64,000 nt of DNA from an uncultured Candidatus Saccharibacteria bacterium (lineage in GTDB: Bacteria > Patescibacteriota > Saccharimonadia > Saccharimonadales > CAZWFS01): contig CAZWFS010000001.1 in NCBI GenBank assembly GCA_964633325.1, forward strand, positions 3,063 to 67,062. Direction: 5' to 3'. Below are positions 34,094 through 55,000 of the stretch, piece after piece (positions within the stretch are counted from its first letter, which is position 1; the number at the start of each line of letters is the position of its first letter). The position numbers and the translations under genes are program-made. The notes beneath the pieces were generated by a model. That model was not told where the DNA came from. It was given only the letters and a program-made list of their open reading frames with translations, and did not search any database.

Positions 34094-34155
34094 GATTCGA
34101 ACCTACGACCTTTGGCTCCGCAAGCCAACGCTCTATCCAGCTGAGCTACGGGTGC
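34079..34155 (-). tRNA. tRNA-Arg (anticodon read as GCG; unusual and to be verified) with encoded CCA; overlaps the recombinase stop codon
   Basis: The reverse complement reads GCACCCG-TA-GCTC-AGCTGGATA-GAGC-G-TTGGC-TTGCGGA-GCCAA-AGGTC-GTAGG-TTCGAAT-CCTAT-CGGGTGT-A-CCA. The cloverleaf has a G1:U72 pair. Confidence 0.55.
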
Positions 34156-34288
34156 TCGAAAATATGATATAGAACAGAGGTGAGTTTACCATATTGTCTC
34201 AGGAAAGCCTATGGTTGCTAGAGATTTGGGTGAAATGGCAAAAAGTTCGAATTCACTTCGCGCTTTTTGGTTCCGTTTGTGGGAGGAG

Positions 34289-34354
34289 AGCAGCCAGAGA
34301 AAATGTATTCCATTTTCCCTGCGCTATGAGAGGAGGAGTCACCTCCTCTCATGG
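34289..34354. repeat. conserved twin-hairpin intergenic element, copy 2
   Basis: Near-identical to 6254-6317. It is preceded by a degenerate copy of the same TTCAC-loop terminator hairpin and lies immediately 3' of minus-strand gene 34357..34953. Confidence 0.5.
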
Positions 34355-34356
34355 TT

Positions 34357-34953: not shown

Positions 34954-34995
34954 AAGCGTTATTGTACATTAGCGGGTAACTTTAACAAACGGCGG

Positions 34996-35088
34996 GAACC
35001 GAACGTGGCGGAGAGGGAGGGATTCGAACCCTCGCGGGGGATTGCTCCCCCCTATCGATTTAGCAAACCGACCCCTTCAGCCTCTTGG
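34996..35088 (-). tRNA. tRNA-Ser (anticodon GCU) with a long variable arm and encoded CCA
   Basis: The reverse complement reads GGAGAGG...TCGGT-TTGCTAA-ATCGA-(19-nt variable arm)-GAGGG-TTCGAAT-CCCTC-CCTCTCC-G-CCA. Confidence 0.75.
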
Positions 35089-35494
35089 GTACCTCTCCTT
35101 GCGCCAGACTCGGCCATTATAACAAACGCGGAGGAATACGGGCCTGGAATTTTTAGGGGCCCTCCGACTTTATAATTACTCGCTCAGGATTTTTCGGTCT
35201 CCTGGCCCGCCATACACTTGTCAAATGGCGGGACATTCGGGTCTGGAACCTTTCACCCTGTTTCTGTCCCTATACAGTCTAGCGGATAAAATGGGACACA
35301 ACCAGACTAGTTTGTGCCATTTTTGTAAAATCTCATCTGAAAATGAGACAAATGGAACAAGCGTCTCATTAAAAGACGTGTCCCATTCTATGAGGTAACT
35401 TGACTACAATCATAAGTTATGACATAGCAAGCATAACTACACGCTTATGTTAGTATAGAAGCGAAATAGTCCGTGAATCCTTGCGAGAGACGGA

Positions 35495-37099
35495 CTATTT
35501 TACTTTCTTGACCATTTTCTTGCGCCTTTCCATAGACAAAGCCAGAATAGCTTCGGTAATGTGGCGCATATTCATTGGCTCATGCCAGTTAACTTTGGTG
35601 ACTCGCACATAATGCGTCCTAGGCTTACCGTATTGATGTCTTTGGATGGTGACATGGTCGTCAATGGCGGCTTTGGCAAAAAACGCTAGGCAAAAATGCC
35701 GTTTGATAGCCGGATTAGCATTAACGTACGCTTTGGCAAAATCTAAGCCTTCCGCAAGCTGTAAGGCGCGGTCTCGACGAAAAGTGATAGTCGCTAAACG
35801 CTTCTCAGCTTCCTTGATAACGGATTTAGCTTGCTTAATGTCATGGCTGATCCGCTTTTGTTCGCTCTTCATGAGCTCGGCCGCAATCATTTTGTCATAG
35901 TAGGCCTGCAGCAAGTTCTCCTGCTCAGCTAGCAAATTATTTAGCCGCTGCTGTTGCTGTTTGACCTCGGTTTCAGCAAAGTGCTGTTCGCTCTTAAGCT
36001 CCTCGCCTACTTGCTTAACCAATAGTTCCCGGTCATCGGCCGAAACCTTGAGCCTCTTGAATTGCCGAGCGATAACTTCTTCGATCTTAGCGACTGGCAC
36101 ATATGGCAGGTCACAGCTACCGTCCTTACGATTCAGACAAAAGTAATAGCCGTATTCAACACCGTATCGATTCTTAGATACGCAGTAACAAAGGTGGCGA
36201 TCACAGCGACCGCATAAGAGTAGTCTGGATAGGTAATGGAAGTGGTGCCGGTGCTTGTTATCCCTAATTAGGTGATTAAGTCGCACCATTTGGACAGCTG
36301 CAAAGACAGATGACGTGACAATGGGCTGATGTCTGCCCTTATACTCGACGCCCATATAACGGACATAGCCCATGTAATAGCGATTGGTCAGCATCTTGTT
36401 AAGGCCGCCTAAGCTAAGTGGCGCTACGACTGAGCGTCTACGGATACGGCTCCTGAGGCCGCGTCGAGCCAGAGCTTCACACAACTGTCGTTGTCCATAG
36501 TCGCCGGTGGCATAACGTTCAAAGGCCCAGCGCACCAGTGGCGCTCGTACCGCATCGAGGATCACTGAGCGGACTTCGCGCCTATTAATTCGTTCAATGA
36601 CGTTGGTGTAACCAATGGGGGCTTGGAATGGTGTACCTCCTTGCTTGGCTTTCTCAGTGGCTCCTTTTAAAGCTTCAGCCGCCAGGTTACGGCTATAGAA
36701 CTCAGCAATGGCAGCCATAATGCCGTGTAGTAACTGGCCGGATGGTGTATCATCGATGTTTTCAGTGACACTGACAAGCTGCGCCCCACCTTTCTTGATG
36801 GCAAGGCCAATCATGACATCGTCGTGGAGATTGCGAGCTAGCCGGTCAATCTTATGAACAATGACGTATTCAATCTTCTTCTTGTCGCACAAGTCTTGTA
36901 AAAGCTGCTGCAATCCTGGTCGAGCAGCTGATCTGGCTGACTCACCACGGTCGACGTATTCTTTAATCTTGGTAGCACCCAGCTCCTTGGCTTTGCGTCT
37001 ACAAGCCTCTCGCTGCGCTGGAATCGAGAATCCATCCCGATTCGTATTACCTTTGATTTGATCGAGCGTTGACACTCGCAGATATATAGCTACTTTCAT
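35495..37099 (-). CDS. large serine recombinase (integrase); start placed at the internal ATG that has a GGGAGGAG RBS
   Basis: MKVAIYLRVSTLDQ catalytic motif, recombinase domain (NRYYMGYVRYMG), CxxC...C zinc-ribbon region and a long C-terminal coiled coil. The track ORF carries a 66-aa N-terminal extension. Confidence 0.8.
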   Translation of the reverse strand: MKVAIYLRVSTLDQIKGNTNRDGFSIPAQREACRRKAKELGATKIKEYVDRGESARSAARPGLQQLLQDLCDKKKIEYVIVHKIDRLARNLHDDVMIGLAIKKGGAQLVSVTENIDDTPSGQLLHGIMAAIAEFYSRNLAAEALKGATEKAKQGGTPFQAPIGYTNVIERINRREVRSVILDAVRAPLVRWAFERYATGDYGQRQLCEALARRGLRSRIRRRSVVAPLSLGGLNKMLTNRYYMGYVRYMGVEYKGRHQPIVTSSVFAAVQMVRLNHLIRDNKHRHHFHYLSRLLLCGRCDRHLCYCVSKNRYGVEYGYYFCLNRKDGSCDLPYVPVAKIEEVIARQFKRLKVSADDRELLVKQVGEELKSEQHFAETEVKQQQQRLNNLLAEQENLLQAYYDKMIAAELMKSEQKRISHDIKQAKSVIKEAEKRLATITFRRDRALQLAEGLDFAKAYVNANPAIKRHFCLAFFAKAAIDDHVTIQRHQYGKPRTHYVRVTKVNWHEPMNMRHITEAILALSMERRKKMVKKVK

Positions 37100-37156
37100 A
37101 GCTCCTCCCTTCATTAAGTTAGCCTTCTTATGATGGAAGGATGAGATAATATAGCT

Positions 37157-37753
37157 ATGAGACCCGAAGACTTTACCCGTATAGACTTCAGCCAGATAGA
37201 CCGTATGGCTGCAAATGCTTTGCGGGCGGCGGAACTCGTCCAGCCCAGTGTAGATAGGGCTATTGAAGTGCTCAGTCGCATACAAACAGATATTCAACCG
37301 TATATGCCCAAGATCTTAGAAGCCGTAGAACGGATTCGGCCGGTTATCCTTCGTACTTCAAGCATCTATTTCATGCCATCAAATACGTTAACTCCTACTC
37401 AAACCCAGCCCTTGCTTGCCGAGCCAGCAGTCCCACCCACTCAGCGGCTTAAAAAGAACATCTGTTTAGTTGCCGGTAACAGTTTCAAATTTAAAAACAA
37501 AGCACTCCGAGCCGTAACCCTAACATCTAAGCCTGGCAAGCTCTTGCAACTGCTACTAACAAGTAACGAGCACTTCGTCACTGATGCAGCCATCTGCCGT
37601 GAGCTAGACTTGGAAGACATACGTGGTTTTAGCTATGTGCTGCGTGATCTTAAGAAATTTTTCCGCCAAAATGAGCTCGAAATTATTATTGAAGACCGCA
37701 AAAATCCTAACGGCTATATTCTCATAGATATCCGAAAAACAGATACAAACTAA
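37157..37753 (+). CDS. hypothetical protein; divergent neighbour of the integrase and a possible element regulator
   Basis: ORF only. Confidence 0.3.
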   Translation: MRPEDFTRIDFSQIDRMAANALRAAELVQPSVDRAIEVLSRIQTDIQPYMPKILEAVERIRPVILRTSSIYFMPSNTLTPTQTQPLLAEPAVPPTQRLKKNICLVAGNSFKFKNKALRAVTLTSKPGKLLQLLLTSNEHFVTDAAICRELDLEDIRGFSYVLRDLKKFFRQNELEIIIEDRKNPNGYILIDIRKTDTN

Positions 37754-37845
37754 CTCACTTTGACTCCTAATTAGCCATTTTTTAGTTCCGTCGTGTAACG
37801 GCACTTCTTAGCGTAGCTTTATAAGTGTTAACTAAGGAGTTAAAA

Positions 37846-39171
37846 ATGAGTGAGCAAACATTAGCAATCCAACAAGTAAGCGTCAAGGATTTAAATTCAG
37901 CGCCATACAATCCCCGTAAGTGGAGTGAAGATGCTATTAAGCAGCTGACCGACAGCATCCAGCAGTTCGGTTTGGTTGATCCAATTATTGTGAACGGTAC
38001 ACCCGAGCGTAAGAACGTGGTCATTGGTGGCCACTTCCGTTTGAAAATTGCCAAAGACCTGGGATTCAAAGAAGTGCCAGTAGTCTACGTTAATATTCCA
38101 GATGAAGCCCGCGAAAAAGAGCTGAACCTGCGGCTCAATAAAGCTGTTGGTGACTGGGAGTGGACGTTGCTGGCTGAATTCGATGAAACTCTGCTGGTAA
38201 ATGTTGGTTTCACTAGCGAGGAACTGGACACCATCTTCGACCTTGATGAAGTCATACCAGAAGAATTTGACCTGCAGAAGGAGTTAGATAAGCTCAAGAT
38301 CACTGAGATCAAGGTTGAGAAAGGCGACGTCTACCAGCTCGGTGATTCGCGTCTAATGTGCGGTGACTCCACCATTCCTGAAGATTTTGCCAAGCTGATG
38401 AACGGCGAACAGGCTGACATGTGCCTGACTGACCCACCCTATATCCTCGACTACTTAAAAAGTGGCAAACGCCATGGCAAGCCTACCGAAGGCTTTGGTG
38501 CTAAGAAAAACCGTCGCTACCTGGAAACTGACGTCTTGCCAGACAACTTTACTGAGCTTTGGATGGCCAACGTCGCTGCCCATGCCAAATCAGACTTCAG
38601 CATCATTGTCTACGAGAACTGGAAAAACCTACGCATCATCTGGACCGAGATGGAAAAGTACTGGAAGGTTAAAAACATGATCGTCTGGCATTTGCCAAAC
38701 CGCAATCAAGGTTTTGCAGCCAAGTACAAGTTTTTCTCTAAGCACGACATTGCCATGGTCGGTGCTAGCGGCGATATACCGTACAACCATGATGAGGAGC
38801 CGGAGGGCCTGCAAGAAGAATACGAATCAGCACTTTTCGCAATTGCTGGCAAACCTCAGTGGGAGGGCTACCAAAAAGGTAGAAAGTACCAGCCAACCGA
38901 CTTTATCGACTTTAATGCCGCCGACGAGAAAAGCTCTGGTCAGGCCATTATCTTCGGTGTTAAGCCGCTGGAAATCCTAATCCCATACATAAAGGTCCTG
39001 ACTAAACGTGGTGACCTAGTTGTAGAACCATTTTGCGGCAGCGGCAGCACTTTAGTTGCAGCCACCAAACTGCACCGGCGCTGTTACATCATGGAAAAGT
39101 CACCAGTCTACGCTGAAGTCGCTATGGATCGCTGGGAAAAAGCGACTGGTCTCAAGCGAGTTAAGCTATGA
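37846..39171 (+). CDS. ParB-like nuclease N-terminal domain fused to an N4/N6 DNA methyltransferase
   Basis: The ParB-N region (GGHFRLKIAKDLGFKEVPVVYV) is followed by a DPPY catalytic motif (CLTDPPYILDY) and the SAM-binding motif FCGSGSTLVAA. An AAGGAG RBS precedes the ATG at 37846; the track ORF starts at a GTG at 37825. Confidence 0.7.
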   Translation: MSEQTLAIQQVSVKDLNSAPYNPRKWSEDAIKQLTDSIQQFGLVDPIIVNGTPERKNVVIGGHFRLKIAKDLGFKEVPVVYVNIPDEAREKELNLRLNKAVGDWEWTLLAEFDETLLVNVGFTSEELDTIFDLDEVIPEEFDLQKELDKLKITEIKVEKGDVYQLGDSRLMCGDSTIPEDFAKLMNGEQADMCLTDPPYILDYLKSGKRHGKPTEGFGAKKNRRYLETDVLPDNFTELWMANVAAHAKSDFSIIVYENWKNLRIIWTEMEKYWKVKNMIVWHLPNRNQGFAAKYKFFSKHDIAMVGASGDIPYNHDEEPEGLQEEYESALFAIAGKPQWEGYQKGRKYQPTDFIDFNAADEKSSGQAIIFGVKPLEILIPYIKVLTKRGDLVVEPFCGSGSTLVAATKLHRRCYIMEKSPVYAEVAMDRWEKATGLKRVKL

Positions 39172-39566
39172 GCCGTAACCAAAAAACAGATAAGAAACGC
39201 TTGCTAGAGAAGTTAGCTAAGACACCAATTGTGGAAATCGCCTGCAAGCAAGCTGGTGTACCACGTAGCACCTACTACCGGTGGCGTAAGGATGATGAAA
39301 CCTTTGCCAACCAGTGCGACGAAACCATTGAGCAAAGCGCAGGCCTGATCAATGACATGGCTGAGAGCCAGCTTATCCAAGCCATTAAAGACCAGAACAT
39401 GACGGCTATTATCTTTTGGTTGAAGCACCACCATCCAACCTACTATGCCCGACTTCGGCTGGATGGGCACATCAAACATGAGAGTGAGGAACTAACGCCA
39501 GAACAGACCGAGGCGGTCGTTCGGGCGCTGGCATTCTTGAAGGAGAGTAACGATGGCAGTGGCTGA
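39168..39566 (+). CDS. terminase small subunit-like HTH protein
   Basis: IACKQAGVPRSTYYRWRKDDETF HTH. It overlaps the methylase stop (ATGA) and lies immediately upstream of terL. Confidence 0.5.
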   Translation: MSRNQKTDKKRLLEKLAKTPIVEIACKQAGVPRSTYYRWRKDDETFANQCDETIEQSAGLINDMAESQLIQAIKDQNMTAIIFWLKHHHPTYYARLRLDGHIKHESEELTPEQTEAVVRALAFLKESNDGSG

Positions 39567-41118
39567 ACTAGTTGACCTAACGCAGCTATCCGCTGGTGAT
39601 CTGGAGCACATCCGTAGCTCTAAGCAAGTTCGCATGGGCATCGCTAGCCGTAGCCTGACCGGTTTTATGCATTTGTACTTCCCCGAATACATCACCCGAC
39701 CCACAGCACCTTTTCATCATGAAATGTACGGTTTGCTTGAAGATGAGGCCATCGATCATCTAGTACTAATGGCCTTTCGGGGTTCTGGTAAGTCGACCAT
39801 TGTTACCCTCGGTTATCCCATCTGGGCAGCCTTAGGCACACCCAGCAAAAAGTTTATTCTAATCGCCAGCCAAACCCAACCGCAAGCCCAACAGCATCTC
39901 AAAAACATTAAACGGGAGTTTGAGAGCAATGAACTGTTGCGAAAAGACTTCGGCCCGCTGAATGAAATAGCCGACGAATGGGGCTCGGTATCGTTGGTAC
40001 TTCCTAAGTTTGATACTCGCATCACAGCCGTATCGGTTGAGCAAAGCATCCGTGGGGTGCGTCACGGGCCTCATAGGCCCGATTTAATTATTGCTGACGA
40101 TGTGGAAGATAGTAACTCAGTGAAAACTCGCGAGGGACGTAATAAGGTCTTTGACTGGTATACCGGCGAAGTTGTCCCTGCTGGTGATACCAATACCAAA
40201 AGAGTTGTCATTGGCAACCTGCTGCACGAAGACTCTTTGCTGATGCGCCTGAAAGAGGCCTTTGCGTTAAAAATGATGCAGGGCGTGTTCAAATCATATC
40301 CATTGATTAAGCACGGCAAACCGCTGTGGCGCGGTAAATACCCTGATAGCCAGGCGCTGCGGCGTGAGGAGTTGCGGGTCGGCAACCGGGTAGCCTGGCA
40401 CCGTGAGTACCTGTTGGAGATACTGCCAACCGAAGACCAAGTGGTACATCGAGGATGGCTACGCTACTACGATGAGCTGCCCGAACTTAATCGTGAAAAT
40501 CCTGACAATACACTGCGTTACTACAACACCTACCTAGGTATAGATTTAGCGATCAGCCAAAAAGATACCGCTGACTACACCGCCATGGTGGCAGTACACG
40601 TGTTTGGATTCCAAGAAACTTTGAAAGTTTACGTTGACCCCCTGATTATTAACAAGCGGCTGACTCATTTGCAGACGCTGGAAACCATTGCTCAGGTGGT
40701 GGAATCCGTAGGTGATAAGTACAAAGTGGAAATTATTGTCGAGGACGTTGGCTACCAGTCGTCCGTAATTGAACAACTGCAGAACAAAAACTACCGCGTG
40801 GAACCGTTTAAAGTTCTGGGTGCTGACAAACGTGCTCGTTTTATCTCTGTTAGCCACTTGTTTGAATTTGGTCGGATCTATCTGCCTAGAGCTGCTTCCA
40901 AGGAACTAGCTAACCAACTGACTGGGTTTGGCGTCGAAAAGCATGATGACCTGGTTGATGCTATCGTCATGACCCTTGGTAAAGTGGTGAGTAAAGACAA
41001 ACCGATTGGTACCTACAGTGGAGTTAGGCTTGGCAAACATAGCCTCTGGAAAGATTTTGACGACTTCGAGAATGGCCGAGGCCGGTGGTCGCTTAGTCGG
41101 TTTGATCAGCAGTGGTAG
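39553..41118 (+). CDS. phage terminase large subunit
   Basis: Walker A FRGSGKST and Walker B DLIIADDVED in the ATPase domain, followed by a C-terminal RNaseH-like nuclease region with conserved acidic residues. Confidence 0.75.
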   Translation: MAVAELVDLTQLSAGDLEHIRSSKQVRMGIASRSLTGFMHLYFPEYITRPTAPFHHEMYGLLEDEAIDHLVLMAFRGSGKSTIVTLGYPIWAALGTPSKKFILIASQTQPQAQQHLKNIKREFESNELLRKDFGPLNEIADEWGSVSLVLPKFDTRITAVSVEQSIRGVRHGPHRPDLIIADDVEDSNSVKTREGRNKVFDWYTGEVVPAGDTNTKRVVIGNLLHEDSLLMRLKEAFALKMMQGVFKSYPLIKHGKPLWRGKYPDSQALRREELRVGNRVAWHREYLLEILPTEDQVVHRGWLRYYDELPELNRENPDNTLRYYNTYLGIDLAISQKDTADYTAMVAVHVFGFQETLKVYVDPLIINKRLTHLQTLETIAQVVESVGDKYKVEIIVEDVGYQSSVIEQLQNKNYRVEPFKVLGADKRARFISVSHLFEFGRIYLPRAASKELANQLTGFGVEKHDDLVDAIVMTLGKVVSKDKPIGTYSGVRLGKHSLWKDFDDFENGRGRWSLSRFDQQW

Positions 41119-41896: not shown

Positions 41897-42790
41897 ATGG
41901 ATAAACAAAAAAGAGCTTACATATACGCAATTAGTGCTGTATTGCTTTGGTCAACCGTAGCCTCAGCTTTTAAGATCTCATTACGCTATCTGGATACCTT
42001 CCAGCTACTTTTCTTTGCAGCCCTGTCATCCACGTTGATATTGTTCCTCATACTGCAATTACAACACAAGCTAGAGCTGCTTAAACAGACTACTAGTAAG
42101 GACTACCTGCATTCTGCCCTTTTTGGCTTATTGAACCCTTTCTTGTATTACATAATCCTCTTTAAGGCCTATGATTTGCTCCCCGCTCAAGAAGCCCAAC
42201 CTTTGAACTACATTTGGGCCGTTATGCTGGTTATCTTGTCCATCCCCCTTCTTAAACAAAAGATTAGCTTAAAAAGTACCCTAGCTATCCTTATTAGTTT
42301 CTTTGGAGTATTCGTCATTGCAACTCATGGAAATGTTCTTGGATTTAGGTTTACAAACATAGGCGGTGCTTCATTAGCTATCGGTAGTTCTGTAATATGG
42401 GCCTTGTTTTGGATATACAACGTCAGAGACAAGAGAGATGAAGTTATAAAGCTCTTTTTAGGCTTTCTATTTGGGTTGGTGTATGTGGCAATAGCCACAA
42501 TCATTTTTTCAAGCCTGGCTGCTCCCGATATTCGTGGCCTCTTGGGAGCTATCTATGTTGGCTTATTTGAGATGGGAATCACTTTTGTCCTATGGTCTAA
42601 GGCCATAAAGTTGTCAGTTAATACGGCAAAGGTTAGCCGCTTCATCTTTCTATCTCCGTTCATATCCCTGATACTTATTCACTTTATAATCGGAGAGGAT
42701 ATTTTGCTTTCAACAATAGTAGGCCTTGTGTTTATTGTTGCTGGAATACTTTTGGAACAATCGGGCAAAAAACTTAGCGAAGCTAAGTGA
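41897..42790 (+). CDS. EamA/DMT-superfamily transporter
   Basis: Ten TM helices with the duplicated EamA architecture; N-terminus AISAVLLWSTVASAFKISLRY. Confidence 0.7.
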   Translation: MDKQKRAYIYAISAVLLWSTVASAFKISLRYLDTFQLLFFAALSSTLILFLILQLQHKLELLKQTTSKDYLHSALFGLLNPFLYYIILFKAYDLLPAQEAQPLNYIWAVMLVILSIPLLKQKISLKSTLAILISFFGVFVIATHGNVLGFRFTNIGGASLAIGSSVIWALFWIYNVRDKRDEVIKLFLGFLFGLVYVAIATIIFSSLAAPDIRGLLGAIYVGLFEMGITFVLWSKAIKLSVNTAKVSRFIFLSPFISLILIHFIIGEDILLSTIVGLVFIVAGILLEQSGKKLSEAK

Positions 42791-43055
42791 TAGAAACCGA
42801 TTTTGGCATCCTCGGCGATTTACGTGTGGTCGCTTAGAGACTTCGAGTAGTTTGCTTATCACACAGAGAACCCAAGCTTAAAGCAAAAGGCCCTGAGGGT
42901 ACTGTAGATATTTGGCTCAGTAGGAGCAAAAGAATGGTATTTAGATAACCGGGAGAAAGCACGTCCGGCGATTGGGACTATGTTATCGCAGAACTTAAGC
43001 ACGCAAATTAGGCTGTAGTCACGGACGCTACTTTTACTCCCTTTTGCTTACCGTT

Positions 43056-44390
43056 CTATAAAAGCTGTTTACTTAATTCCGCAGGCCATTCTCGCCGGAT
43101 AAAAGGCATATACTGCACTTCTTCAGCTAGTTTTTTGACCAGCTTTTCAAGCTCGCTAAAGCCATCATCAACTTCCTTCTGCCCGATAACAACCTTGTGC
43201 GGCACGTGATCTTCGTGGGCAGCCTTCAGCCGAGAAGACACACTGATAGCCTTATCGTCTATTTCAATGCGTAGCGGTAAGTTCTCGTATTTGTTAACCA
43301 AATCTTGGCAATGCTTAACGAACTCGGCACCAACTGGTAACAATCTGATCTGCACCGGACTTACCCATAACGGCAATCCCTGCTCGAAGTTGTCGAACAG
43401 TATATACAAATATCGTTCAACGCCACCTGGAATGGCCGAATGGATGATGATCGGGTTTTTTGATTCACCATTCTCATCGATGTAGTGAATATTTAGTCGC
43501 CGGGCGTTATCAATATCAACCTGGATACAAGCTATTTCACGAGCCTGGCCGAGCTTGTCGATGACTTTGTAATCGACGTTGACGACCCAATAGCGGTCTT
43601 TACCGTCTTCTAGGATATTGACCAGCACATCAGCACCGAGTGATATCGGTATTTGCTCTATGTAGCCTTGGTATTCTTGCCAGACTTTTTCTGATGGCAC
43701 TTCAATCACGACCTGATAGCTACGATTTGCGGCAGCGACCGATTGGAGAATCTGCTCTTGTAACTTCGGGAACCAGTCAAAGGCCTCGGAAACATCCTTA
43801 AAGTAGGGGTGAATGTCTGGCATATAGAACCGTCTTTGCCGAAGCAGCATCATCATTTCGCCGCTTTGTTCTTGCCGATAGCAATCGGATAGTGAAAAGT
43901 GAGCGAACGGAAATTGTTTGTAGCTCAACGGTGCTTTGGAAGCTAGGTTGAACTGCGGATAGCTAGCATCGTAACTCATGACAATGTCTGACTTGCCCGA
44001 TTTGAACTGGTACAGCCGGTCGCCATATAACGAAGCGTAAGCATCAACCACCGGATGCTGAAGACTAAACATATTCGCGCCGTTGACCTCATAGATCGGT
44101 AAGCCGATACCATGCACGAGTTGTCGGGCGTAATCCTGTACTAACCGTCGCATCAGGTTGGCTTTATAGTTGTATTGCACATGGCCAATATCGGCATTCG
44201 GCTCCCAGTTGAAACCTAGTTTACTGGCGTGAGCAAGATATGCTGGCTTGTCGTTAGATTGGTCTACCAATACTTCGCCAAGTGCCTCTCGGCGGACAAA
44301 ACGAGCAAACTCACTGTTAATTTTACGCAGCTTTAAGTAATCGTCTATTTCAACGACCTGTTTTTGTTGGTTTAAGATAAAGTATTTCAT
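43056..44390 (-). CDS. thrS: threonyl-tRNA synthetase, catalytic and anticodon-binding domains only (lacks the N-terminal TGS/editing domains)
   Basis: PIIIHSAIPGGVERYLYILFDNF and PLWVSPVQIRLLPV match the ThrRS motif-3 and anticodon-domain regions. At 444 aa it is too short to contain the N1/N2 domains. Confidence 0.65.
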   Translation of the reverse strand: MKYFILNQQKQVVEIDDYLKLRKINSEFARFVRREALGEVLVDQSNDKPAYLAHASKLGFNWEPNADIGHVQYNYKANLMRRLVQDYARQLVHGIGLPIYEVNGANMFSLQHPVVDAYASLYGDRLYQFKSGKSDIVMSYDASYPQFNLASKAPLSYKQFPFAHFSLSDCYRQEQSGEMMMLLRQRRFYMPDIHPYFKDVSEAFDWFPKLQEQILQSVAAANRSYQVVIEVPSEKVWQEYQGYIEQIPISLGADVLVNILEDGKDRYWVVNVDYKVIDKLGQAREIACIQVDIDNARRLNIHYIDENGESKNPIIIHSAIPGGVERYLYILFDNFEQGLPLWVSPVQIRLLPVGAEFVKHCQDLVNKYENLPLRIEIDDKAISVSSRLKAAHEDHVPHKVVIGQKEVDDGFSELEKLVKKLAEEVQYMPFIRREWPAELSKQLL

Positions 44391-44780
44391 TTGGAAACTC
44401 CATTAGGGTTAAGTTCTATTACCTCTGCTTGTCGCCCTAAATGGAGTTTTCCCTTGAGAAATAAAAAACTCCCGCCGTTGGGAGTTTTCAATCATGACAA
44501 ACCCAACGGTCTAGGACGGTACCGTTGTCGTGGTTGATTGGCTTGAAATGATTGGATAAATCATAGAGTGTATTATAGCACGAAACTTAAGTATTGACAA
44601 ATTTTTGTATAACGTGTAAGCTTGCCTGGATGATAAGTTTAACCCAAGTATTATTTATTGTACCGCCAGCCCCTAGTAGTCACCGGAGGCTTTGCTAGGT
44701 TTTAAATAACATAAATCCAAGAATCAGCGCAAGGCGGCCTCCGGGCCGTCTTTTTACTTGCGCTGATTTACGGAGTAATT

Positions 44781-45752
44781 ATGTTAAATCTAAATATTGA
44801 ACGTGTCGAACTTGGCACGGATGAAATGCAAAAGCTAGTGAGACAAGGACATAGAGTCAGAGAAACCCCTCATCTTGGTGGTCCTTATTTTGGAAAATAT
44901 GCCTTAACACTAGGTGGTCTGGCAAGCGATGTTGTCCTAGTTGATACCATTAAGGCTGCCCGGGACAAGTTTGGTAAGGTCCAAGACTTGGCTGGAATTA
45001 GAATACTCTCGAATAGTGAGGGAGAACGTATCCCAGCTGCCGCAACAAATAACTTCGCTCTGGAAGCTACAAAAAAGAAAACAGCACAAGCTAGATTAGA
45101 TGAAGTAGCTAGTTTGGTAGAAAGTTTGGGAGTTGCAGGGGCTGAACGATTTTTTCAAAACGGTGCTGTTGATTTTGTAGCATTGCATACTCATTGCACA
45201 GAATCAGTCGTTGCTGACGGTATATCCGTTTCAACCTTTGCTGATTTATGGAGAAAATCGGGAGAGACCGCCAATGCCATGATGTTTTATATGGCAGAAC
45301 AAGGTTTGCTTGAACGCTGGTATGACTCCGAGGCAAAAGAGGTTATGGGAGTAAACGACACAGGCCAATCTGCCCTGCTAAGGAGTGAGGGTAGTTACTT
45401 TGATTCGTGTACGACAGTACACGGTGTGTTGCCTCCTGTGGAGGCTATGCTAGCAATTGAAGCCGTCCAGGCTGTAATTGACGGGCGAGATGTTACTTAT
45501 GACCATCTTTATGTTAGGAGTACGGAGTACACCAAAGACGAAGCGGTCAATGACCGTGTGCGTGATATTGCACTTGGTACTCTTGCGTTGCTGGGAGGTT
45601 TAAGTGGTCAAGTTTCCTATCGCTACATCATTGCCGATAACCAACTACTAGACGAGATAGGGGGCGCGAAAACTCACTTCGATATGTTAAAAGTAGGCCA
45701 AAGATTTGATGCTGATACACTTACAAGGAAATGGAGTGGTTCAAATGATTAA
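44781..45752 (+). CDS. hypothetical protein; upstream partner of the VanX-like gene
   Basis: ORF whose stop overlaps the next gene's start (ATGATTAA); no motif. Confidence 0.35.
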   Translation: MLNLNIERVELGTDEMQKLVRQGHRVRETPHLGGPYFGKYALTLGGLASDVVLVDTIKAARDKFGKVQDLAGIRILSNSEGERIPAAATNNFALEATKKKTAQARLDEVASLVESLGVAGAERFFQNGAVDFVALHTHCTESVVADGISVSTFADLWRKSGETANAMMFYMAEQGLLERWYDSEAKEVMGVNDTGQSALLRSEGSYFDSCTTVHGVLPPVEAMLAIEAVQAVIDGRDVTYDHLYVRSTEYTKDEAVNDRVRDIALGTLALLGGLSGQVSYRYIIADNQLLDEIGGAKTHFDMLKVGQRFDADTLTRKWSGSND

Positions 45753-47923: not shown

Positions 47924-48274
47924 ATCTTTTACAGTAATAACATAGATTAAATTCTGCAAATCGCTCCACTTTAGTTCGGCGCATTTCTTAGAATAACCTA
48001 AAAATTGACGGTTCACATAGTTTGGAGTAGTATAATCACACAAAAGCAATGAAGGGGTATGCCGCCCTGGAGCTGCCTGCGATGAGCAGTGCCGGAAGCT
48101 CAACCGTATAAATAGAGACACTGATGTCGACCAAGTCGGAGTCAGTTATTGAGGTCGCAAGCAGTGATGTTGCGACAAAAGCAAGATGGTAACACGAGTA
48201 GCCTCGTTCTTGCTAAGCACAGAGATGTGTTTAGTGGGAACGGGGCTATATTATTTTGAAAGGAGATATAACAA

Positions 48275-48610
48275 ATGAAAATAGTATACGAAGACTTTGA
48301 AAAAGTTGATATCAGAGTAGGTAGGATAGTTGATATAGAAGATTTTCCAGAAGCTCGTAAGGCTTCATACCGACTTAAGATAGATCTAGGACAAGAAATC
48401 GGTATTAAAAAATCATGTGCCCAATTGCCTAAGAATTACACCAAAGAACAGCTCAAAGATAAACTTGTTCTGTGTGTGGTTAACTTCCCTCCGCGTCAAA
48501 TTGGGCCGGCGGTATCAGAAGTTCTAACGCTAGGAGTGCCTGACGATGAAAATGAATGCGTACTGGTTATCCCTGATAAGGATATACCCTTAGGCGGAAA
48601 ATTATATTAG
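48275..48610 (+). CDS. stand-alone tRNA-binding domain protein (Trbp111/CsaA/EMAP-II-like OB fold)
   Basis: DIRVGRIVDIEDFPEARK...IDLGQEIGIKKSCAQL...LVLCVVNFPP is the canonical Trbp111-type tRNA-binding domain. It lies 11 nt upstream of alaS. Confidence 0.7.
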   Translation: MKIVYEDFEKVDIRVGRIVDIEDFPEARKASYRLKIDLGQEIGIKKSCAQLPKNYTKEQLKDKLVLCVVNFPPRQIGPAVSEVLTLGVPDDENECVLVIPDKDIPLGGKLY

Positions 48611-48621
48611 GAGAAACCACC

Positions 48622-50505
48622 ATGGATACACAAACTATTCGTAGTAAATATCTAGAGTTCATGAAAGAACGAGGGCATGTAATTGTGCCTCGCGCCCAAT
48701 TGGTGCCACAAGATGACGCCTCTACATTGTTCACCGGCAGCGGCATGCAGCCAATGGTGCCGTATCTGCTGGGTGCAGAGCACCCGGAAGGCACGAGGAT
48801 AGCGGATAGTCAGACGGTCTTTCGTGTTGTTGACATTGACGAAGTGGGAGATTCTAGTCATTGCACATTCTATGAAATGATTGGCAACTGGAGCTTGGGT
48901 GATTATTTCAAACGCGAACAGCTAACTTGGATTTTTGAATTCTGTGTAGATGTTATTGGGCTTAACCCCGAGCGAATGTACCCTACTTGTTATATAGGTA
49001 GTGATGAGTTTGGAATCCCGAAAGACCAGGAAGCGGCTCAAATTTGGCAAGAATTATTTAAGACAAAAGACATTAAAGCACAAGCGGTAGATATTGGCTC
49101 TAAAACTGATGGGTATCAAAAAGGAATGAGTGGTGGCAGAATTTTCTATTATGAGGGTAACGAAAATTGGTGGAGCCGTGGAGGTCCCGAAGCGGGTACG
49201 CCAGTCGGCGACCCCTGTGGCCCAGACAGCGAAATCATGTATGAGTTTCCTGATGTTGAGCACGATTTAAAATTTGGGCCAAATTGCCACCCAGCCTGTG
49301 ATTGTGGCCGTTTTATAGAAATCGGTAACAATGTATTTATGGGATACAAGCATACTTCTAGTGGTTTTGAAAAGCTGCCGAAACCAAACATTGATTTTGG
49401 TGGAGGGCTGGAACGGATTGCCGCAGCCGCAGAAGGAAGTGGCGATATGTATAAAATTAGTGTCCTGTGGCCAATTATTGAGAAAATTCAAGAACTTAGC
49501 GGCAAGTCATACGAAGATTACACGAAAGCAATGCGTGTGATTGCCGACCATTCAAGAGCTGCTGTATGGCTGGCAGTTGATGGAGTAGTGCCAAGCAATA
49601 CACAGCAGGGCTATGTTATGCGCCGTCTCATGCGCCGTGCCATTCGTTATGGATTAGAATTAGGCGTTGCTAATGATTTGTGCTCTCAGTTAATTCCAAC
49701 AATAGTTCAAATATATGAGCTGGATTTTCCTGAAGTTAGCGACAGAAATGACATGGTAGTTGACTTGCTGGACAAGGAGGAAAAATTATTTCGCCAGACA
49801 TTACGTAATGGAGTGAAAGAATTTAGCAAAATGACACGAAGCGGTAGCTTGAATGGTAAACACGTTTTTACTCTTCATGATACTTATGGCTTTCCTGCAG
49901 AACTTAGTATTGAGGAGGCCGCGCTCAATAATGTTCTGGTAGACGAGAACTGGCGTACAGAATTTGACCAATTGATGAGCAAACAAAAGGAACGCTCCCG
50001 AACGGCAACAGAAGGTCAATTTAAGGGCGGCCTGGGCGGGCATTCAGCAATGCACAAGAAATACCACACCGCAACACACTTGATGTATAAAGCGTTGCGC
50101 ATGGTTTTAGGTAAACATGTTATTCAACGAGGTAGCAACATTACAGAAGAACGTTTACGTTTTGATTTTTCTCATCCTGAAAAAATGACACCAGAACAAA
50201 TCGCTGAAGTAGAAAGTATTGTAAACGAACAGATTGAAAAAGATTTGCCGATGACATGGCAAGAACGACCCACCAAAGAGGCCTTAGAAGCTGGCGTTTT
50301 AGGTGCATTTGGTCACAAATACGGTGATACGGTGAAAGTTTATACAGCTGGCGACCCTAACGGCGAATGGTTTAGTATGGAAATTTGCGGTGGTCCACAC
50401 GTTGACCATACTAGTGAATTGGCTGAAGGTGGTAAAAAATTCAAGATCAGCAAAGAAGAAGCAAGTTCAGCTGGTATCCGCAGGATTAAAGCCATCTTGG
50501 AATGA
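48622..50505 (+). CDS. alaS: alanyl-tRNA synthetase (catalytic, tRNA-recognition and editing domains; no C-Ala domain)
   Basis: N-terminus RSKYLEFMKERGHVIVPRAQLVP...TLFTGSGMQP, with editing-site HxxxH (HTATH) and CGGPH motifs. At 627 aa it ends right after the editing domain. Confidence 0.85.
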   Translation: MDTQTIRSKYLEFMKERGHVIVPRAQLVPQDDASTLFTGSGMQPMVPYLLGAEHPEGTRIADSQTVFRVVDIDEVGDSSHCTFYEMIGNWSLGDYFKREQLTWIFEFCVDVIGLNPERMYPTCYIGSDEFGIPKDQEAAQIWQELFKTKDIKAQAVDIGSKTDGYQKGMSGGRIFYYEGNENWWSRGGPEAGTPVGDPCGPDSEIMYEFPDVEHDLKFGPNCHPACDCGRFIEIGNNVFMGYKHTSSGFEKLPKPNIDFGGGLERIAAAAEGSGDMYKISVLWPIIEKIQELSGKSYEDYTKAMRVIADHSRAAVWLAVDGVVPSNTQQGYVMRRLMRRAIRYGLELGVANDLCSQLIPTIVQIYELDFPEVSDRNDMVVDLLDKEEKLFRQTLRNGVKEFSKMTRSGSLNGKHVFTLHDTYGFPAELSIEEAALNNVLVDENWRTEFDQLMSKQKERSRTATEGQFKGGLGGHSAMHKKYHTATHLMYKALRMVLGKHVIQRGSNITEERLRFDFSHPEKMTPEQIAEVESIVNEQIEKDLPMTWQERPTKEALEAGVLGAFGHKYGDTVKVYTAGDPNGEWFSMEICGGPHVDHTSELAEGGKKFKISKEEASSAGIRRIKAILE

Positions 50506-50561: not shown

Positions 50562-51935
50562 TTGTCCTTGATGAATCAACAAGGAACACAACTAACCAAT
50601 ACCTCAGCTCTCCAGTTGCCACATGAAAAAAACGGGAGGCCTGTCGATAGTATAGCCGTCAAAGCAAAACGAGTTGAATACTGCCTCTATGCCCGAAAAT
50701 CCAGCGAAGATGATGAACGCCAAGCCCTTTCCATTGATTCACAGATCAAAGAAATGGCAGTTCAGGTCGAAAGCCAGGGACTACGGGTTACAGAGATCCG
50801 GAAAGAGAGTCACTCTGCCAAACAATCTGGACAAAGACCAGTGTTTCAACAATTGATTGAGGATGTTCGCAAAGGACTATTCACTGGCATATTGAGCTGG
50901 GCACCAGATCGCCTAAGCAGAAATGCCGGTGACTTGGGCTCAGTCGTAGACCTTATGGATCAAGGTAAGTTAGTTGAGATCAGAACTCACGGCCAGGTAT
51001 TCACCAACTCACCCAACGACAAGTTTCTGCTAATGATTCTATGTTCCCAGGCCAAACTTGAGAACGACAACAGAGGCATCAACGTTAAAAGAGGCATGAA
51101 AACCAAGTGTGAACTGGGCTTTCGGCCTAATATGACACCACTCGGTTACCTTAACGACCATTACTCCGGCAAAGGTCAAAAGAAGGTGTTCGTAGATAAG
51201 AAGCGAGCACCAATTATCAAAGAGGCCTTTGAAAAGGTGGCTACCGGTGCTAGCGGACGCGATATTTATAACTGGATGAAAGAAATCAACTATAGGACTA
51301 AGAGCGGCAAGTTAATGACACTGAGTGGTGTTTACCGTATGCTCAATAACCCATATTACTGCGGTATCTTCGAATTCCCGACCGGCAGTGGCAAATGGTA
51401 CAAAGGATCGTATACGTCGATTATCTCTAGAGAATTATTTGATGCGGTTCAAAAGAAGATGGAAGTGAACCCAAAAAGTAAGCCAGGAACCAAGCAATTT
51501 GACTATACCAAATTGCTTAAATGTGGTGGCTGTGGCTCCGGCGTCACGGCGCAGGAGAAATTCAAAAAACGCAAAGACGGTACTGCTAAACGTTACGTTT
51601 ATTACCACTGTACTCAATCGCGAGACTTTGACTGCCCGCAAGGCTATATCCGGGAAGAAAAACTGGCCGAGGCCTTCGTCAACATGCTGGAGAAAGTAAC
51701 AGTTGAAGAAATTGAAAGCAAGGAAGCCCTGAGGGCTGAACTTGATAGATTCAGGCGTTTATCGTCTGCAGTACTGGGATACAGTAACAATCCAGAGCAA
51801 CCGGAGATTAATCTGCATAACTTTGCTAAATACGTGCTTACAGAAGGAACAAGAGCCGAAAAACGTGAATTGATCTCATGTCTTGATCAAACGATTTATC
51901 TTAAAGATAGACAAGTGCACACAACTCTGAGCTAG
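50562..51935 (+). CDS. large serine recombinase; true start uncertain
   Basis: Catalytic motif YARKSSEDDERQ, recombinase domain (NNPYYCGIFEF), zinc ribbon (CGGCGS...YYHC) and a C-terminal coiled coil. The track ORF starts at a TTG and places the catalytic Ser unusually far from the N-terminus (about aa 49). Confidence 0.75.
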   Translation: MSLMNQQGTQLTNTSALQLPHEKNGRPVDSIAVKAKRVEYCLYARKSSEDDERQALSIDSQIKEMAVQVESQGLRVTEIRKESHSAKQSGQRPVFQQLIEDVRKGLFTGILSWAPDRLSRNAGDLGSVVDLMDQGKLVEIRTHGQVFTNSPNDKFLLMILCSQAKLENDNRGINVKRGMKTKCELGFRPNMTPLGYLNDHYSGKGQKKVFVDKKRAPIIKEAFEKVATGASGRDIYNWMKEINYRTKSGKLMTLSGVYRMLNNPYYCGIFEFPTGSGKWYKGSYTSIISRELFDAVQKKMEVNPKSKPGTKQFDYTKLLKCGGCGSGVTAQEKFKKRKDGTAKRYVYYHCTQSRDFDCPQGYIREEKLAEAFVNMLEKVTVEEIESKEALRAELDRFRRLSSAVLGYSNNPEQPEINLHNFAKYVLTEGTRAEKRELISCLDQTIYLKDRQVHTTLS

Positions 51936-52013
51936 GAAACCGTAAGCTTGCAGAATAACTTGCTTATTGGATAGCTATATTTTTATCTGTTGTTCCCCTA
52001 TACTGAAGGAGCT

Positions 52014-55000
52014 ATGGGAAGTGTTACTGCACACCAGGATCAGAATCGTTTACTAGAAGTGGAGCCTACTAAGCTCCACAGTACAAAAGTTACTCTGCCT
52101 CTACGTCTAATCGACAGCGTAAAAGTTGGCAAGAATCGAGCCAATCAAATTTACCAAGACGAAGAATTAGTTGACGTTGATGTTTATGATGAGGGGGATA
52201 AGCTCTTAAAGTTAAAATCAGAAAAAGAAGAGTTTATTCTTAAGCTACCGGGAGCCAGAGCAACCATCACTAATAAAAATGTGTTAAGAATTGCAAACTA
52301 CACAGATGCAAAATCTATAAATCAAGATAGCAAATTAACTTGGGAGGACTTTCAGGGCTCCGAGGCACCAAACAGTACTAATGGAGTGAAAGAATCTTGG
52401 CTTCATTCCTTTAATTTTAAGGAAGAATATCCAGCAAAGAATATACCTGGTCTTAGAAAACCCCAAGCGGGCGCAATACACTCTGTAGCCGCTCATTGGT
52501 CTGTGAAAAACGACTGCGCCACAATTGTAATGCCTACTGGTATAGGGAAAACTGAAACGATGCTTTCGGTTATGGTTCATCAACAATGTGAAAAGATTCT
52601 TGTTCTTGTACCCACCAGTGCGCTTAGGAAACAAATATATAACAAATTCTTAACGCTAGGTAAGTTGAAGAAACTTGGGGTTGTTGAGCAGAAAGCACTG
52701 AGCCCCCGTGTATTAATGATTGAGCACACCATTGAAAATGTGGCTGAAGCAAAAGAAGTATTAAAAAACGCCAACGTTATTGTAGCTACTGTAAGTGTCC
52801 TAAATCGCTCAAGTGATACCGTCAAACAAGTAATATCTGAGGGATGCTCTCATTTGTTTATAGATGAAGCGCACCATGTACCTGCCAATAGTTGGAGTGC
52901 CATAAAAGACCTTTTTGAGAACAAATATATCTTGCAATTTACTGCTACACCGTTTAGGCGAGACTCAAAAGTAATTGAGGGGGATATCATATACAACTAC
53001 CCCCTAGGAATGGCGCAGAATGACGGCTACTTTAAGAAGATTAACTTATTGAAGCTTCAGGAGTTTGATGACGCGAAGTCAGACGAAGAAATAGCCAAAG
53101 CGGCAATAGGAGCACTTGAGAATGATCTAAACGGCCCAATAAAACTTGATCATATGATTATGGCTAGGTGTAAGGATAAGGATCGAGCTCGTGATATAAT
53201 CCGACATTACAAAAAACACGGTACAACATACAACCCGGTTCTTATTGATTCTGAATTGACCAGTAAACAATATAGAGAAATCGAGGAGAAGCTAAAGAAC
53301 GGCGAAACTAGGATTATTGTCTGTGTAAATATGCTTGGTGAAGGTTTTGATCTGCCTAATCTCAAAATAGCTGCCCTACATGATGTCCATAAGAGCCTTG
53401 CGATCACCCTCCAATTCATAGGTCGTTTTACAAGAGAAGCTAAGGATGTTGGTGACGCTACCGTTGTAGTGAATGTGAATGATCCCCAAGTTAATAAGGA
53501 CTTGGAGGGTCTATATTCTGAAAACCCAGATTGGAATGAAATCTTAAAGCAAAAAAGTGAATCTACCATAGAGCACGAAATAGAATCCCATGAGTTTATA
53601 AAAGAATTTTCAGGGGAGCTTTCAAAGCACATTTCTCTTTGGAATTTACGCCCATCATTCTCAACGCTAATTTATGAAACTAAGTGTCAAGACTGGAACC
53701 CCAAAAAGTTCGAGGAGGTAATGCCCAAGCGATACAAATACTGGCATGCAATAAACCAAAAAGAGAAAATACTGGTTGTAGTTATTAGCAAAGAAGATGA
53801 GGTAAATTGGGGCCGCTATAAGGACATTCATAATCACAGCTTTGAACTTTGTGTGGTGCATTGGAGCGAAGAGCATAAAGCGTTGTTTATACAATCTAGT
53901 GACTACGATGCAATTAACCCGGCAGGTTTATCAAGAGCTATTTGTGGAGAAGATACCAAAATCAAAAATGGGTCTAATGTATTCAACATATATTCAGGCG
54001 TGGAGCGCATTCTTGCTCGTAATCTCGGCATCTCGACTGTTGGGAATAATATATCCTACACAATGCACTTTGGTAGTGACATTACTCAAGGCCTCTCAAA
54101 ATTAGATAAGTCTTTAGGGGTTCTGAACAACATTTCGGCTTGGGGTTTTGAGGGCGGTGATCGTTTTATGGCAGGCTGCTCGGAAAGAAGTGGCAAAATT
54201 TGGTCTATCGGTGGTGGTCCTATGATGCTTTGGAAAAGTTGGTGTCATAAGGTGGCCGACAAAGTTTTTGATGAAACTATTGAGGCGAATAAGGTAATCG
54301 AAGAATTTCTTCGCCCCGTCCAGCTCGAAAAGAGGCACAAATCCGTACCTCTGTTGATCGAATGGAGTGAAAGGATTCTTAAGGCAAAAGAGGACAATAT
54401 AACTGTCTTGTTCGGTAAAGAAGAGTTTAAAATTTATGACGTAGAAATAGAGATTACTAATTTTTCTGATTCAGGTCCTGTTCACTTCCGAGTATTTAAT
54501 GATACCCATGAAACAAAATACAAAATAGATTACTCAAAAACGGACTGCAAATACTCCATTGTCAGTGGCAACGATATGAGTATTAAAAAGTACAGTGCAC
54601 AGCCTGTTCCGTTTATGGACTACGTTTTGAGAGACCCGGTTGTCGTTATATACGTGGACGGGTCTTTCTCATACAACAATTATCACGTACCTACACCGCC
54701 ACTAAACCAATTTTATGACAAAGAGCGTTTGCAGGTTGTTGATTGGCAAAAGACAAATATACGGGTGGAGTCAATGAAAAAAGAAAGAAAAACCGATAGT
54801 ATTCAACACAAAGTGTGGCAAATGCTTAATGATGAATATGAAGTCGTCTTTAACGATGACGATTCAGGAGAAGCTGCCGATCTAATCGCCATAAGGCAGG
54901 AGTCTACTGACACAATAAAGTTGCACCTAGTTCACTGTAAATTTTCATCAAAGCCAAACACTGGGTCTAGAATAGGAGATTTTTATGCTCTCTGTGGACA

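Follow-up and report, generated by a model that had tools for sequence, protein, structure and literature searches.

A predicted leaderless threonine-codon attenuator upstream of an archaeal-type threonyl-tRNA synthetase gene in Candidatus Saccharibacteria

The threonyl-tRNA synthetase (ThrRS) gene, thrS, of an uncultured Candidatus Saccharibacteria bacterium (GenBank assembly GCA_964633325.1, contig CAZWFS010000001.1) raises two questions: how a synthetase gene preceded by a terminator with an alternative pairing is controlled, and how an enzyme without an editing domain deals with mischarging. The locus was analysed within a stretch of 64,000 nucleotides (nt; positions 3,063 to 67,062 of the contig), referred to here as the window, in which thrS occupies 43056..44390 of the minus strand; all features of its leader lie on that strand. 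An earlier note, made from the sequence alone, had put forward a T-box-like attenuator. Comparison with the leaders of relatives points instead, very probably, to transcription attenuation by a leaderless Thr-codon leader peptide, through which thrS would sense Thr-tRNAThr, the product of ThrRS itself.

A short open reading frame (sORF) of 17 codons plus a TAG stop was read from the sequence at 44511..44564 (ATG ATT TAT CCA ATC ATT TCA AGC CAA TCA ACC ACG ACA ACG GTA CCG TCC TAG), specifying the candidate leader peptide MIYPIISSQSTTTTVPS. Its four consecutive Thr codons, ACC ACG ACA ACG (44523..44534), are the stall site proposed from the sequence and from relatives. For the comparison, 20 thrS loci from reference genomes and 66 from metagenomes were used (ThrRS identity 43–87%), originating from Saccharibacteria, one Dojkabacteria genome and unassigned metagenome contigs. 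Upstream regions were scanned for ATG-initiated ORFs of 8–35 amino acids with at least three Thr in five residues, with composition-preserving shuffles as controls. Such a Thr-run ORF was present in 72 of 74 distinct thrS upstream regions, compared with 2.9 in shuffles; when other amino acids were scanned in the same way, the next was Ile (19/74), and the reverse complement gave zero Thr-run ORFs. The relatives' sORFs hold 3–8 Thr each and use all four ACN codons, and the peptides diverge outside the Thr run (MIYSINSNQATTTTVLS, MIKSIKPNQITTTVLS, MIYRISQSVITTTTTLLS, MVKSIAKFATITTTTTTDSAVG, MFNLVTTTTTTTTAHAGG and MKNIIVSKNISINSTTPTTRV). An equivalent arrangement, with the ORF MKNREYFFSLTTTP and its stop codon, was found upstream of a ThrRS of 43% identity (P0122, L088:777-2159). 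The Thr sORF and hairpins fall within the called N-terminus of this protein (460 aa), so its start has probably been called about 20 codons too far upstream. A pattern scan of the window for other leaderless sORF-plus-terminator elements left the thrS element as the only convincing one.

The sORF lies immediately downstream of a predicted promoter (44572..44600), which comprises a −35 element TTGTCA (44595..44600), a 17-nt spacer and an extended −10 element TGcTATAAT (44572..44580), with 11 of 12 consensus matches in addition to the TG extension. Only 7 nt separate the end of the −10 hexamer from the sORF ATG (44564), so that a leaderless transcript is implied. Among 68 relatives, the ATG was found 6–7 nt past the −10 hexamer in 58 and the TGn extension in 50, and an SD-like (Shine–Dalgarno-like) motif upstream of the sORF in just one; because this spacing is conserved and such motifs are nearly absent, the sORF is placed at the extreme 5′ end of a leaderless transcript. 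No other promoter-like site was found between the terminator and thrS. The 390-nt gap 44391..44780, which the earlier note had treated as thrS leader throughout, is a divergent intergenic region; measured from the promoter (44600..44572) the leader is about 174 nt, and the rest of the gap belongs to the 5′ region of the plus-strand ORF 44781..45752.

Two features of that note, an intrinsic terminator before thrS and a segment able to pair with it alternatively, were both seen and are conserved. The terminator, GAAAACTCCC-AACGGC-GGGAGTTTTT followed by a T run (44464..44489, read from 44489 to 44464), ends about 70 nt before the thrS ATG (44390), and most relatives carry an intrinsic terminator between sORF and thrS. 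Its 5′ side is designated segment 3, (G)AAAACTCCCAACGG (44475..44488), and its 3′ arm with the U tract segment 4, GGGAGTTTTTT (44463..44473). Segment 2, ACCGTTGGG (44502..44510), begins with the base directly after the stop codon and can pair with segment 3 as antiterminator: the 5′ arm and loop of the terminator contain CCCAACGG, the complement of (G)ACCGTTGGG (44502..44511), and this pairing covaries in relatives, with 79–97% of cells paired and 6–7 of 8 pairs changing on both sides. Alternatively, segment 2 can pair with segment 1, CAACGGT (44521..44527), which overlaps the last two Thr codons, to form the anti-antiterminator P3. Two further helices appear in the minimum free energy (MFE) structure, their 3′ strands together spanning 44490..44503. 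The P1 5′ strand AATCAT (44548..44553), inside the sORF, pairs with ATGATT (44490..44495); it is 83% paired, with AATCAGC/GCTGATT variants in relatives. The P2 5′ strand CAAGCC (44540..44545) pairs with GGTTTG (44498..44503); all 7 of its pairs change on both sides, yet in the MAFFT alignment the paired share of cells is just 64%.

The geometry of these segments relative to the sORF is conserved as well. Segment 2 starts 1–5 nt past the stop codon in nearly all relatives, and segment 1 overlaps Thr codons in near and far relatives despite differing sequences. The MFE of the leader is −53.7 kcal/mol (z = −4.5), below all 200 shuffles, and the helices of the termination state (P1, P2, P3, the terminator and the SD hairpin) were 78% paired, above all shuffles. 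The ORF and its conservation, the geometry, and the alternative helices with their covariation are directly established.

In the attenuation mechanism that we propose, transcription would start on the A of the ATG at 44564 or no more than one base away from it, giving a leaderless mRNA whose 17-codon sORF (MIYPIISSQSTTTTVPS and stop codon) would be translated by a ribosome. When Thr-tRNAThr is scarce, a ribosome stalled on the four Thr codons would cover segment 1 (CAACGGT), and segment 2 would be free to pair with CCCAACGG as the polymerase releases the latter; this 2:3 pairing would block the terminator, and RNA polymerase would continue into thrS. When Thr-tRNAThr is plentiful, the ribosome would reach TAG and, because segment 2 begins directly after the stop codon, would cover segment 2, so that the terminator 3:4 would form and transcription would end about 100 nt from its start. 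Were no ribosome present, an extended P1-P2-P3 hairpin (1:2) would hold segment 2, and termination would again result. The trp, thr and pheST attenuators follow this logic. Translation of the sORF, ribosome stalling and the kinetic order of folding are the parts of this model that we infer.

Ribosome occupancy was modelled with hard folding constraints, using a footprint size from established knowledge; a ribosome shields roughly 12–15 nt 3′ of the P-site. For the window, the terminator formed with a modelled probability of 0.87 in ribosome-free RNA; placing a ribosome at the first Thr codon lowered this to 0.18, and placing it at the stop codon raised it to 0.96. Equilibrium folding was not relied on as proof of the switch, as it works for the window and not for many relatives.

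Conserved structure continues downstream of the terminator. RNAalifold paired a segment made up of the last sORF codons and the stop codon, termed a (CGTCCTAG, RNA CGUCCUAG; 44511..44518), with a box about 25 nt beyond the terminator, termed b2 (TTAGGGCG, RNA UUAGGGCG; 44433..44440); b2 can pair either with a or with CCCTAA just before the thrS SD. The a:b2 helix recurs at an unchanged position in relatives both near and far, where it shows compensatory changes (GUUCUA/UAGAAC, CGCUCUAG/GUAGAGCC, GGCUUAA/UUAAGCC, AGGCUUAG/AUAAGCCA, GGGUGU/AUACCC, AGAUCUGA/AUCAGAUC, UAAGUCCUAG/UUAGGACUUU and AGATCTGA/TCAGATC). The sORF stop is TAG in 57 of 68 leaders, compared with 9 of 20 long window ORFs, a preference attributable to the pairing of segment a, stop codon included, with b2.

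Directly 5′ of b2 lies AAAACUCC(AU), which nearly repeats the 5′ arm of the terminator and is complementary to the SD region of thrS (AUGGAGUU). It belongs to segment 5, AAAACTCCAT (44441..44450), an anti-SD that pairs with either segment 4 (4:5) or the SD region (5:6). Because of the near-repeat, the terminator 3′ arm and U tract can pair with this downstream copy, and the resulting 4:5 hairpin was predicted in 62 sequences (median z −2.9). The inner stem of this hairpin shows covariation (GCUU/AAGC, GGUG/CCAC, CUUUU/AAAAG), as judged by per-sequence folds and covariance-model alignment, the MAFFT columns having register shifts. Segment 6, CCCTAATGGAGTT (44396..44408), contains the thrS SD GGAG (44398..44401) and is sequestered in the MFE, termination-prone fold, where segment 5 and b2 pair with CCCUAAUGGAGU and bury the SD (unpaired probability 0.01). 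A further contact was noted between motif c, TCTCAA (consensus UCUCG; 44454..44459), in the loop of the 4:5 hairpin, and motif d, CAGAGG (44422..44427): the loop UCUC(G) can pair with (C)AGAG(G) 5–8 nt past b2, forming a pseudoknot with the 4:5 or 5:6 hairpin, and compensatory variants occur (UUUC/GAAA, UUAUC/GAUAA, GUACC/GGUA, UCUUC/GAAGA).

Together, a:b2, 2:3 and 4:5 form a nested three-way junction. In a MAFFT alignment of 50 leaders, the helices of the read-through state (a:b2, antiterminator and anti-SD:SD; 20 pairs) were 90% paired, with slid controls at 33–54%; five measures on these pairs lay above shuffles, four of them in 500/500 and the fifth in 498/500. A covariance model of the junction, R1, gave one match in each of 68 of 87 sources (397 kb), coinciding with the mapped leaders, and its only match in the window was 44431..44522 (94.6 bits). 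In the alignment of R1 matches, which is fitted to the structure, 92% of cells were paired (slid controls 35–56%), 15 of 23 pairs changed on both sides, and 92 compensatory cells were counted against 21 ± 3.7 in shuffles. Enforcing the junction raised the unpaired probability of the SD from 0.01 to 0.49 in the window and the median of the near group from 0.23 to 0.46.

These folds suggest, probably though in tentative terms, that the attenuator has a second, translational output, in which antitermination would be coupled to unmasking of the SD. In read-through RNA, segment 4 would pair with AAAACUCC (segment 5) and a with b2, and the junction of a:b2, 2:3 and 4:5 would leave the thrS SD unpaired; in termination-prone or refolded RNA, segment 5 and b2 would pair with the SD region and block translation, and transcripts merely leaking through the terminator would stay translationally silent. 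Carried further, one stalled ribosome would set both outputs through a six-segment relay, in which a pseudoknotted junction (with the UCUC:GAGA contact) unmasks the SD and leak-through transcripts are silent. The leaders would then form a conserved, structured class of dual attenuator in at least Saccharibacteria and a Dojkabacteria genome, placed before a ThrRS that lacks a cis editing domain across the lineage and possibly lacks a trans editor as well. This full relay is possible, but we hold it to be somewhat doubtful.

Several observations weigh against attenuation or against its second output. One relative lacks the sORF (L043) and another has only T-A-T (L019). In the former (WNGD01020670.1, thrS at 1501; ThrRS 72% identical) the sORF is missing together with the 5′ half of the leader, and the downstream anti-SD/box/SD domain is kept; a rearrangement or an assembly chimera may account for the loss. 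The last Thr codons double as the 5′ strand of helix 1:2, and part of the Thr-codon conservation could therefore reflect a constraint on the RNA: ACG accounts for 63% of Thr codons in the sORFs of 68 leaders and 21% in 20 long window ORFs, a bias that could reflect pairing of ACGACGACGG with CCGUCGGGU, sensing of one tRNAThr isoacceptor, or both. With segment 1 masked, many relatives keep the terminator at equilibrium (near-group median 0.91), so the switch must be kinetic, as in the trp operon, with segment 3 available before segment 4. The junction state is less stable than the SD-sequestering hairpin by about 11 kcal/mol, and SD release would therefore have to be transient, in a co-transcriptional, ribosome-held state. 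The counts from the R1 matches come from an alignment fitted to the very structure under test. Finally, that the sORF is translated, that initiation in this organism is leaderless and that transcription terminates at 44464 are themselves predictions from sequence.

The alternatives differ in what they make of the sORF and of the downstream domain. In a T-box riboswitch, uncharged tRNAThr would pair with a Stem I specifier and with the antiterminator bulge, stabilising the antiterminator. The terminator/antiterminator alternative agrees with such a switch, though it is common to all attenuators and not diagnostic; the organism also has a T-box-like element upstream of alaS, and GGUACCG in the window partly matches the T-box core, as had been pointed out. 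This motif is not conserved, however, relatives having GGTGCTG, GGTATTA or GCTATTG there, and is a chance feature of the window. The T-box model RF00230 (Rfam 15; gathering score 93 bits) gave no match at E ≤ 10 in 44380..44790 (411 nt) or 42500..45500 (3 kb), and none at E ≤ 1 in ten relatives' thrS loci, yet the same search detected the alaS leader of the window as a positive control (43 bits, E 1.8e-8). The antiterminator has only about 50 nt on its 5′ side, a stretch too short for a Stem I in which the ACC/ACU specifier suggested earlier could sit, and these hold a conserved ORF running from the transcript 5′ end; the antiterminator itself is an uninterrupted plain helix without the T-box bulge. 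T-box identity was thus ruled out by permissive Rfam searches on the leader and on relatives, and we regard this explanation as extremely improbable. Other Rfam families gave only chance-level matches in the leader (drum, RT-9, and Phe_leader on the opposite strand; E 5–9). Because the conserved Thr-run sORF occupies the Stem I/specifier position, the switch is most likely read by a translating ribosome and not by uncharged tRNA.

Escherichia coli ThrRS represses translation by binding its own operator, and an analogous protein-mediated autoregulation would have ThrRS or another RNA-binding protein bind the pseudoknotted 44396..44460 domain and repress translation, the sORF being incidental or secondary. 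This domain matches no Rfam family and is more conserved and structured than simple SD masking needs (c:d, 5:6 and b2 covariation), which speaks for this view. Each of its elements, however, has a second conserved partner in the attenuator (4:5, a:b2), a feature superfluous in a stand-alone operator, and the Thr-run ORF is left unexplained; a tRNA-anticodon-like ThrRS operator was rejected, as no conserved NGU loop was seen on reading the alignments. We consider autoregulation of this kind unlikely. If, on the other hand, the sORF or the terminated transcript were a product in its own right, a small protein or small RNA, the terminator would be constitutive and thrS would be expressed by leak-through or from another promoter. 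The N-terminus M-I-[YK]-[SR]-I is indeed fairly conserved among close relatives, and attenuator-derived RNAs and peptides act in trans in Sinorhizobium (PMC6614838, PMC7298713). The N-terminal conservation coincides with helix P1, however, and the N-termini of far relatives are unrelated; the antiterminator covaries, the R1 matches place the element always directly upstream of thrS, and the region between terminator and thrS has no other promoter-like site. A product of its own is very unlikely on these grounds, and leader-peptide attenuation is retained as the preferred explanation.

The regulated enzyme is an archaeal-type ThrRS of 444 aa. Pfam reported a class II core (PF00587, residues 151–334) and an HGTP anticodon-binding domain (PF03129, 347–424), and nothing further. 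The best NCBIfam model was NF003068 (archaeal-type threonine--tRNA ligase; 363 bits, E 2.6e-108), with the match spanning profile positions 155–609 of 613, so that the N-terminal editing domain is absent; the whole-protein score falls below the curated cut-off of 484 bits because that N-terminal domain is missing. In a library of 1.84 billion proteins, from which the ThrRS relatives were drawn, the closest long relatives (P0125, P0126 and P0127; 617–619 aa) carry PF08915 at residues 1–145, a domain that Pfam did not find in the window ThrRS. The description of a 444-aa protein with catalytic core and anticodon-binding domain and no editing domain therefore stands, whereas the missing part, taken in the earlier note to be bacterial N1/N2, is by comparison with these long relatives the archaeal PF08915. 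The 119 closest relatives (90% clustering) are 435–470 aa long, mostly 443–445, and the short form is consequently a stable lineage trait and no truncated gene. At 72–85% protein identity, the nearest genomic loci were all from Saccharibacteria/Saccharimonadales metagenome-assembled genomes (MAGs) or the complete genome CP025011, and a Dojkabacteria MAG supplied one relative of 51% identity. Separately, a 645-aa ThrRS (P0123, L087:1304-3438) was seen to combine an archaeal-like core with a bacterial-type tRNA_SAD editing N-terminus; no Thr sORF was found upstream of this gene, which is preceded by a gene for a 54-aa basic protein, and the single case supports no conclusion.

A ThrRS without an editing domain across the lineage poses a question of fidelity, namely whether Ser-for-Thr errors are corrected in trans or tolerated. 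Relative to E. coli-type ThrRS chains, a Cys (in ..CYRQE..) and two His (in ..DIHPY.. and ..IHSAI..) are kept, and these residues are the zinc ligands; with these in place the enzyme should still face the Ser/Thr discrimination problem. The window and the relatives' thrS loci were searched by tblastn with archaeal PF08915 and bacterial tRNA_SAD editing-domain queries. Neither a free-standing ThrRS editing domain nor a second thrS was found in the 64-kb window, the sole match being the AlaRS editing domain (50065..50421), and the 333 kb of relatives' loci gave no editing-domain homologue next to thrS. The window and the loci searched are compatible with editing in trans, with pre-transfer editing and with tolerated mistranslation. 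The attenuator itself cannot tell Thr-tRNAThr from Ser-tRNAThr, because either aminoacyl-tRNA is decoded at ACN codons, and so gives no protection against mischarging. Our literature search found no paper on ThrRS editing in Saccharibacteria, Patescibacteria or the candidate phyla radiation (CPR). The architecture of catalytic core and anticodon-binding domain alone is shared with the crenarchaeal ThrRS-cat (Aeropyrum pernix, PDB 3A31/3A32) and with yeast mitochondrial MST1 (PDB 3UGQ), which were among the PDB matches of the window ThrRS, the similarity to 3A31 being weak (E 1e-7). In contrast to these, the window enzyme comes from a CPR bacterium and is most closely related to archaeal-type enzymes that carry PF08915. 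Crenarchaea have a separate ThrRS-ed gene (model NF011500).

Several other features of the neighbourhood were recorded. On the plus strand, in the part of the intergenic gap outside the thrS leader, a nearly perfect hairpin at about 44720..44770 (AATCAGCGCAAGGCGGCC...GGCCGTC...CTTGCGCTGATT), with an inner GC-rich stem and then a T run, stands directly 5′ of the SD and ATG of ORF 44781..45752, whose 323-aa product has no Pfam, NCBIfam or PHROG match. The T-box-like element of the window, at 48040..48214 of the plus strand (RF00230, 43.2 bits, E 1.8e-8, below the gathering score of 93), has an ultrashort Stem I in which 5 nt replace 74 model positions, and its loop UAUGCCG holds the Ala codon GCC. 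A 20-bp hairpin (48201..48246, plus strand) comes after the match. The element lies upstream of ORF 48275..48610, encoding a 111-aa tRNA_bind-domain protein, and of alaS (48622..50505), whose 627-aa product comprises a core and a tRNA_SAD editing domain, with no other Pfam domain reported. Around the synthetase genes, 32591..41118 and 50562..55304 form a block resembling a mobile element or prophage remnant, with large serine recombinases (32591..34093; 35495..37297, minus strand; 50562..51935), a ParB-N6/N4 DNA methylase (37825..39171), a terminase large subunit (39553..41118; phrog_38, E 2e-87), a 1104-aa ResIII/SNF2 helicase, and tRNA-Arg and tRNA-Ser genes at 34079..35098.

The window would thus hold two sensors of tRNA charging, T-box-like on alaS and a leader-peptide attenuator on thrS. 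CPR bacteria such as Saccharibacteria have tiny genomes, and because the lineage has limited biosynthetic capabilities, according to a passage in PMC7427843, the attenuator would tune the charging enzyme itself. The thrS leader is a compact system in which a model of leaderless translation coupled to termination can be tested, as can, if the relay holds true, a single switch governing both transcription and translation initiation; the R1 covariance model is ready for use in annotating CPR genomes.

The proposed control of thrS by tRNA charging has known counterparts. In Bacillus subtilis (thrS/thrZ T-box) and E. coli (thrS operator), more ThrRS is made when charging of tRNAThr is low. Gene and logic are the same as proposed here, whereas the sensors are binding of uncharged tRNA to RNA in the one case and of ThrRS to a tRNA-like operator in the other; neither signature is present in the window thrS leader. 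Leaderless polycysteine sORF attenuators of mycobacteria reportedly use a run of a single codon, the downstream genes responding to the supply of that amino acid (bioRxiv 10.1101/834739); their target is Cys metabolism, compared with a synthetase here. In the thrL leader of gamma-proteobacteria (RF00506), too, a short ORF with consecutive Thr codons precedes alternative hairpins and an intrinsic terminator. Its regulatory codons are for both Thr and Ile and its targets are biosynthetic genes, whereas the window leader would sense Thr only and has a synthetase as its target. RF00506 (gathering score 55 bits) gave no window match at E ≤ 10, and the leader is not a member of the Thr_leader family. 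One relative of 56% identity (L050:1320-1444, sORF MVKSIAKFATITTTTTTDSAVG) scored 37.4 bits (E 0.002), below the gathering score, a resemblance taken to be convergent or functional and not membership.

In the pheST operon of E. coli (pheM), a leader-peptide attenuator likewise precedes a synthetase gene and carries codons matching the charged amino acid, so that the enzyme's own product sets its synthesis. We know of no SD-sequestering relay for pheST. The pheM start is SD-led, in contrast to the leaderless thrS sORF, the amino acid sensed differs, and there is no sequence or Rfam similarity. The pheST operon has been named as the precedent for synthetase-gene attenuators, and attenuators have been predicted for Streptomyces trpS and leuS (PMC1262725). 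A transcriptome-based reannotation of Streptomyces lividans described leaderless leader peptides upstream of alaS, leuS, trpS and thrS, the thrL peptide being MKRVRPFLETTPGFVPAR; it contains two Thr, and a clear terminator is lacking there (PMC8079986). The Streptomyces pairs (thrL-thrS, trpL2-trpS, leuL2-leuS and alaL-alaS) thus resemble the present case in that a leaderless short ORF containing cognate codons immediately precedes an aminoacyl-tRNA synthetase gene. They belong to a different phylum, the window thrS being archaeal-type, and where S. lividans thrL is known from one genome with two Thr codons, the leaders described here have 3–8 Thr, a canonical terminator and covariation in at least 60 sequences. 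Our search of the literature found no paper on attenuators or cis-regulatory RNA in Saccharibacteria, Patescibacteria or the CPR. As a kind, leader-peptide attenuation of synthetase genes is therefore already known, from pheST of gamma-proteobacteria and from Streptomyces trpS, leuS and thrS; what is new here is the CPR lineage, together with a clean leader architecture of deep conservation and, apparently, a relay that reaches the SD by way of a covarying three-way junction.

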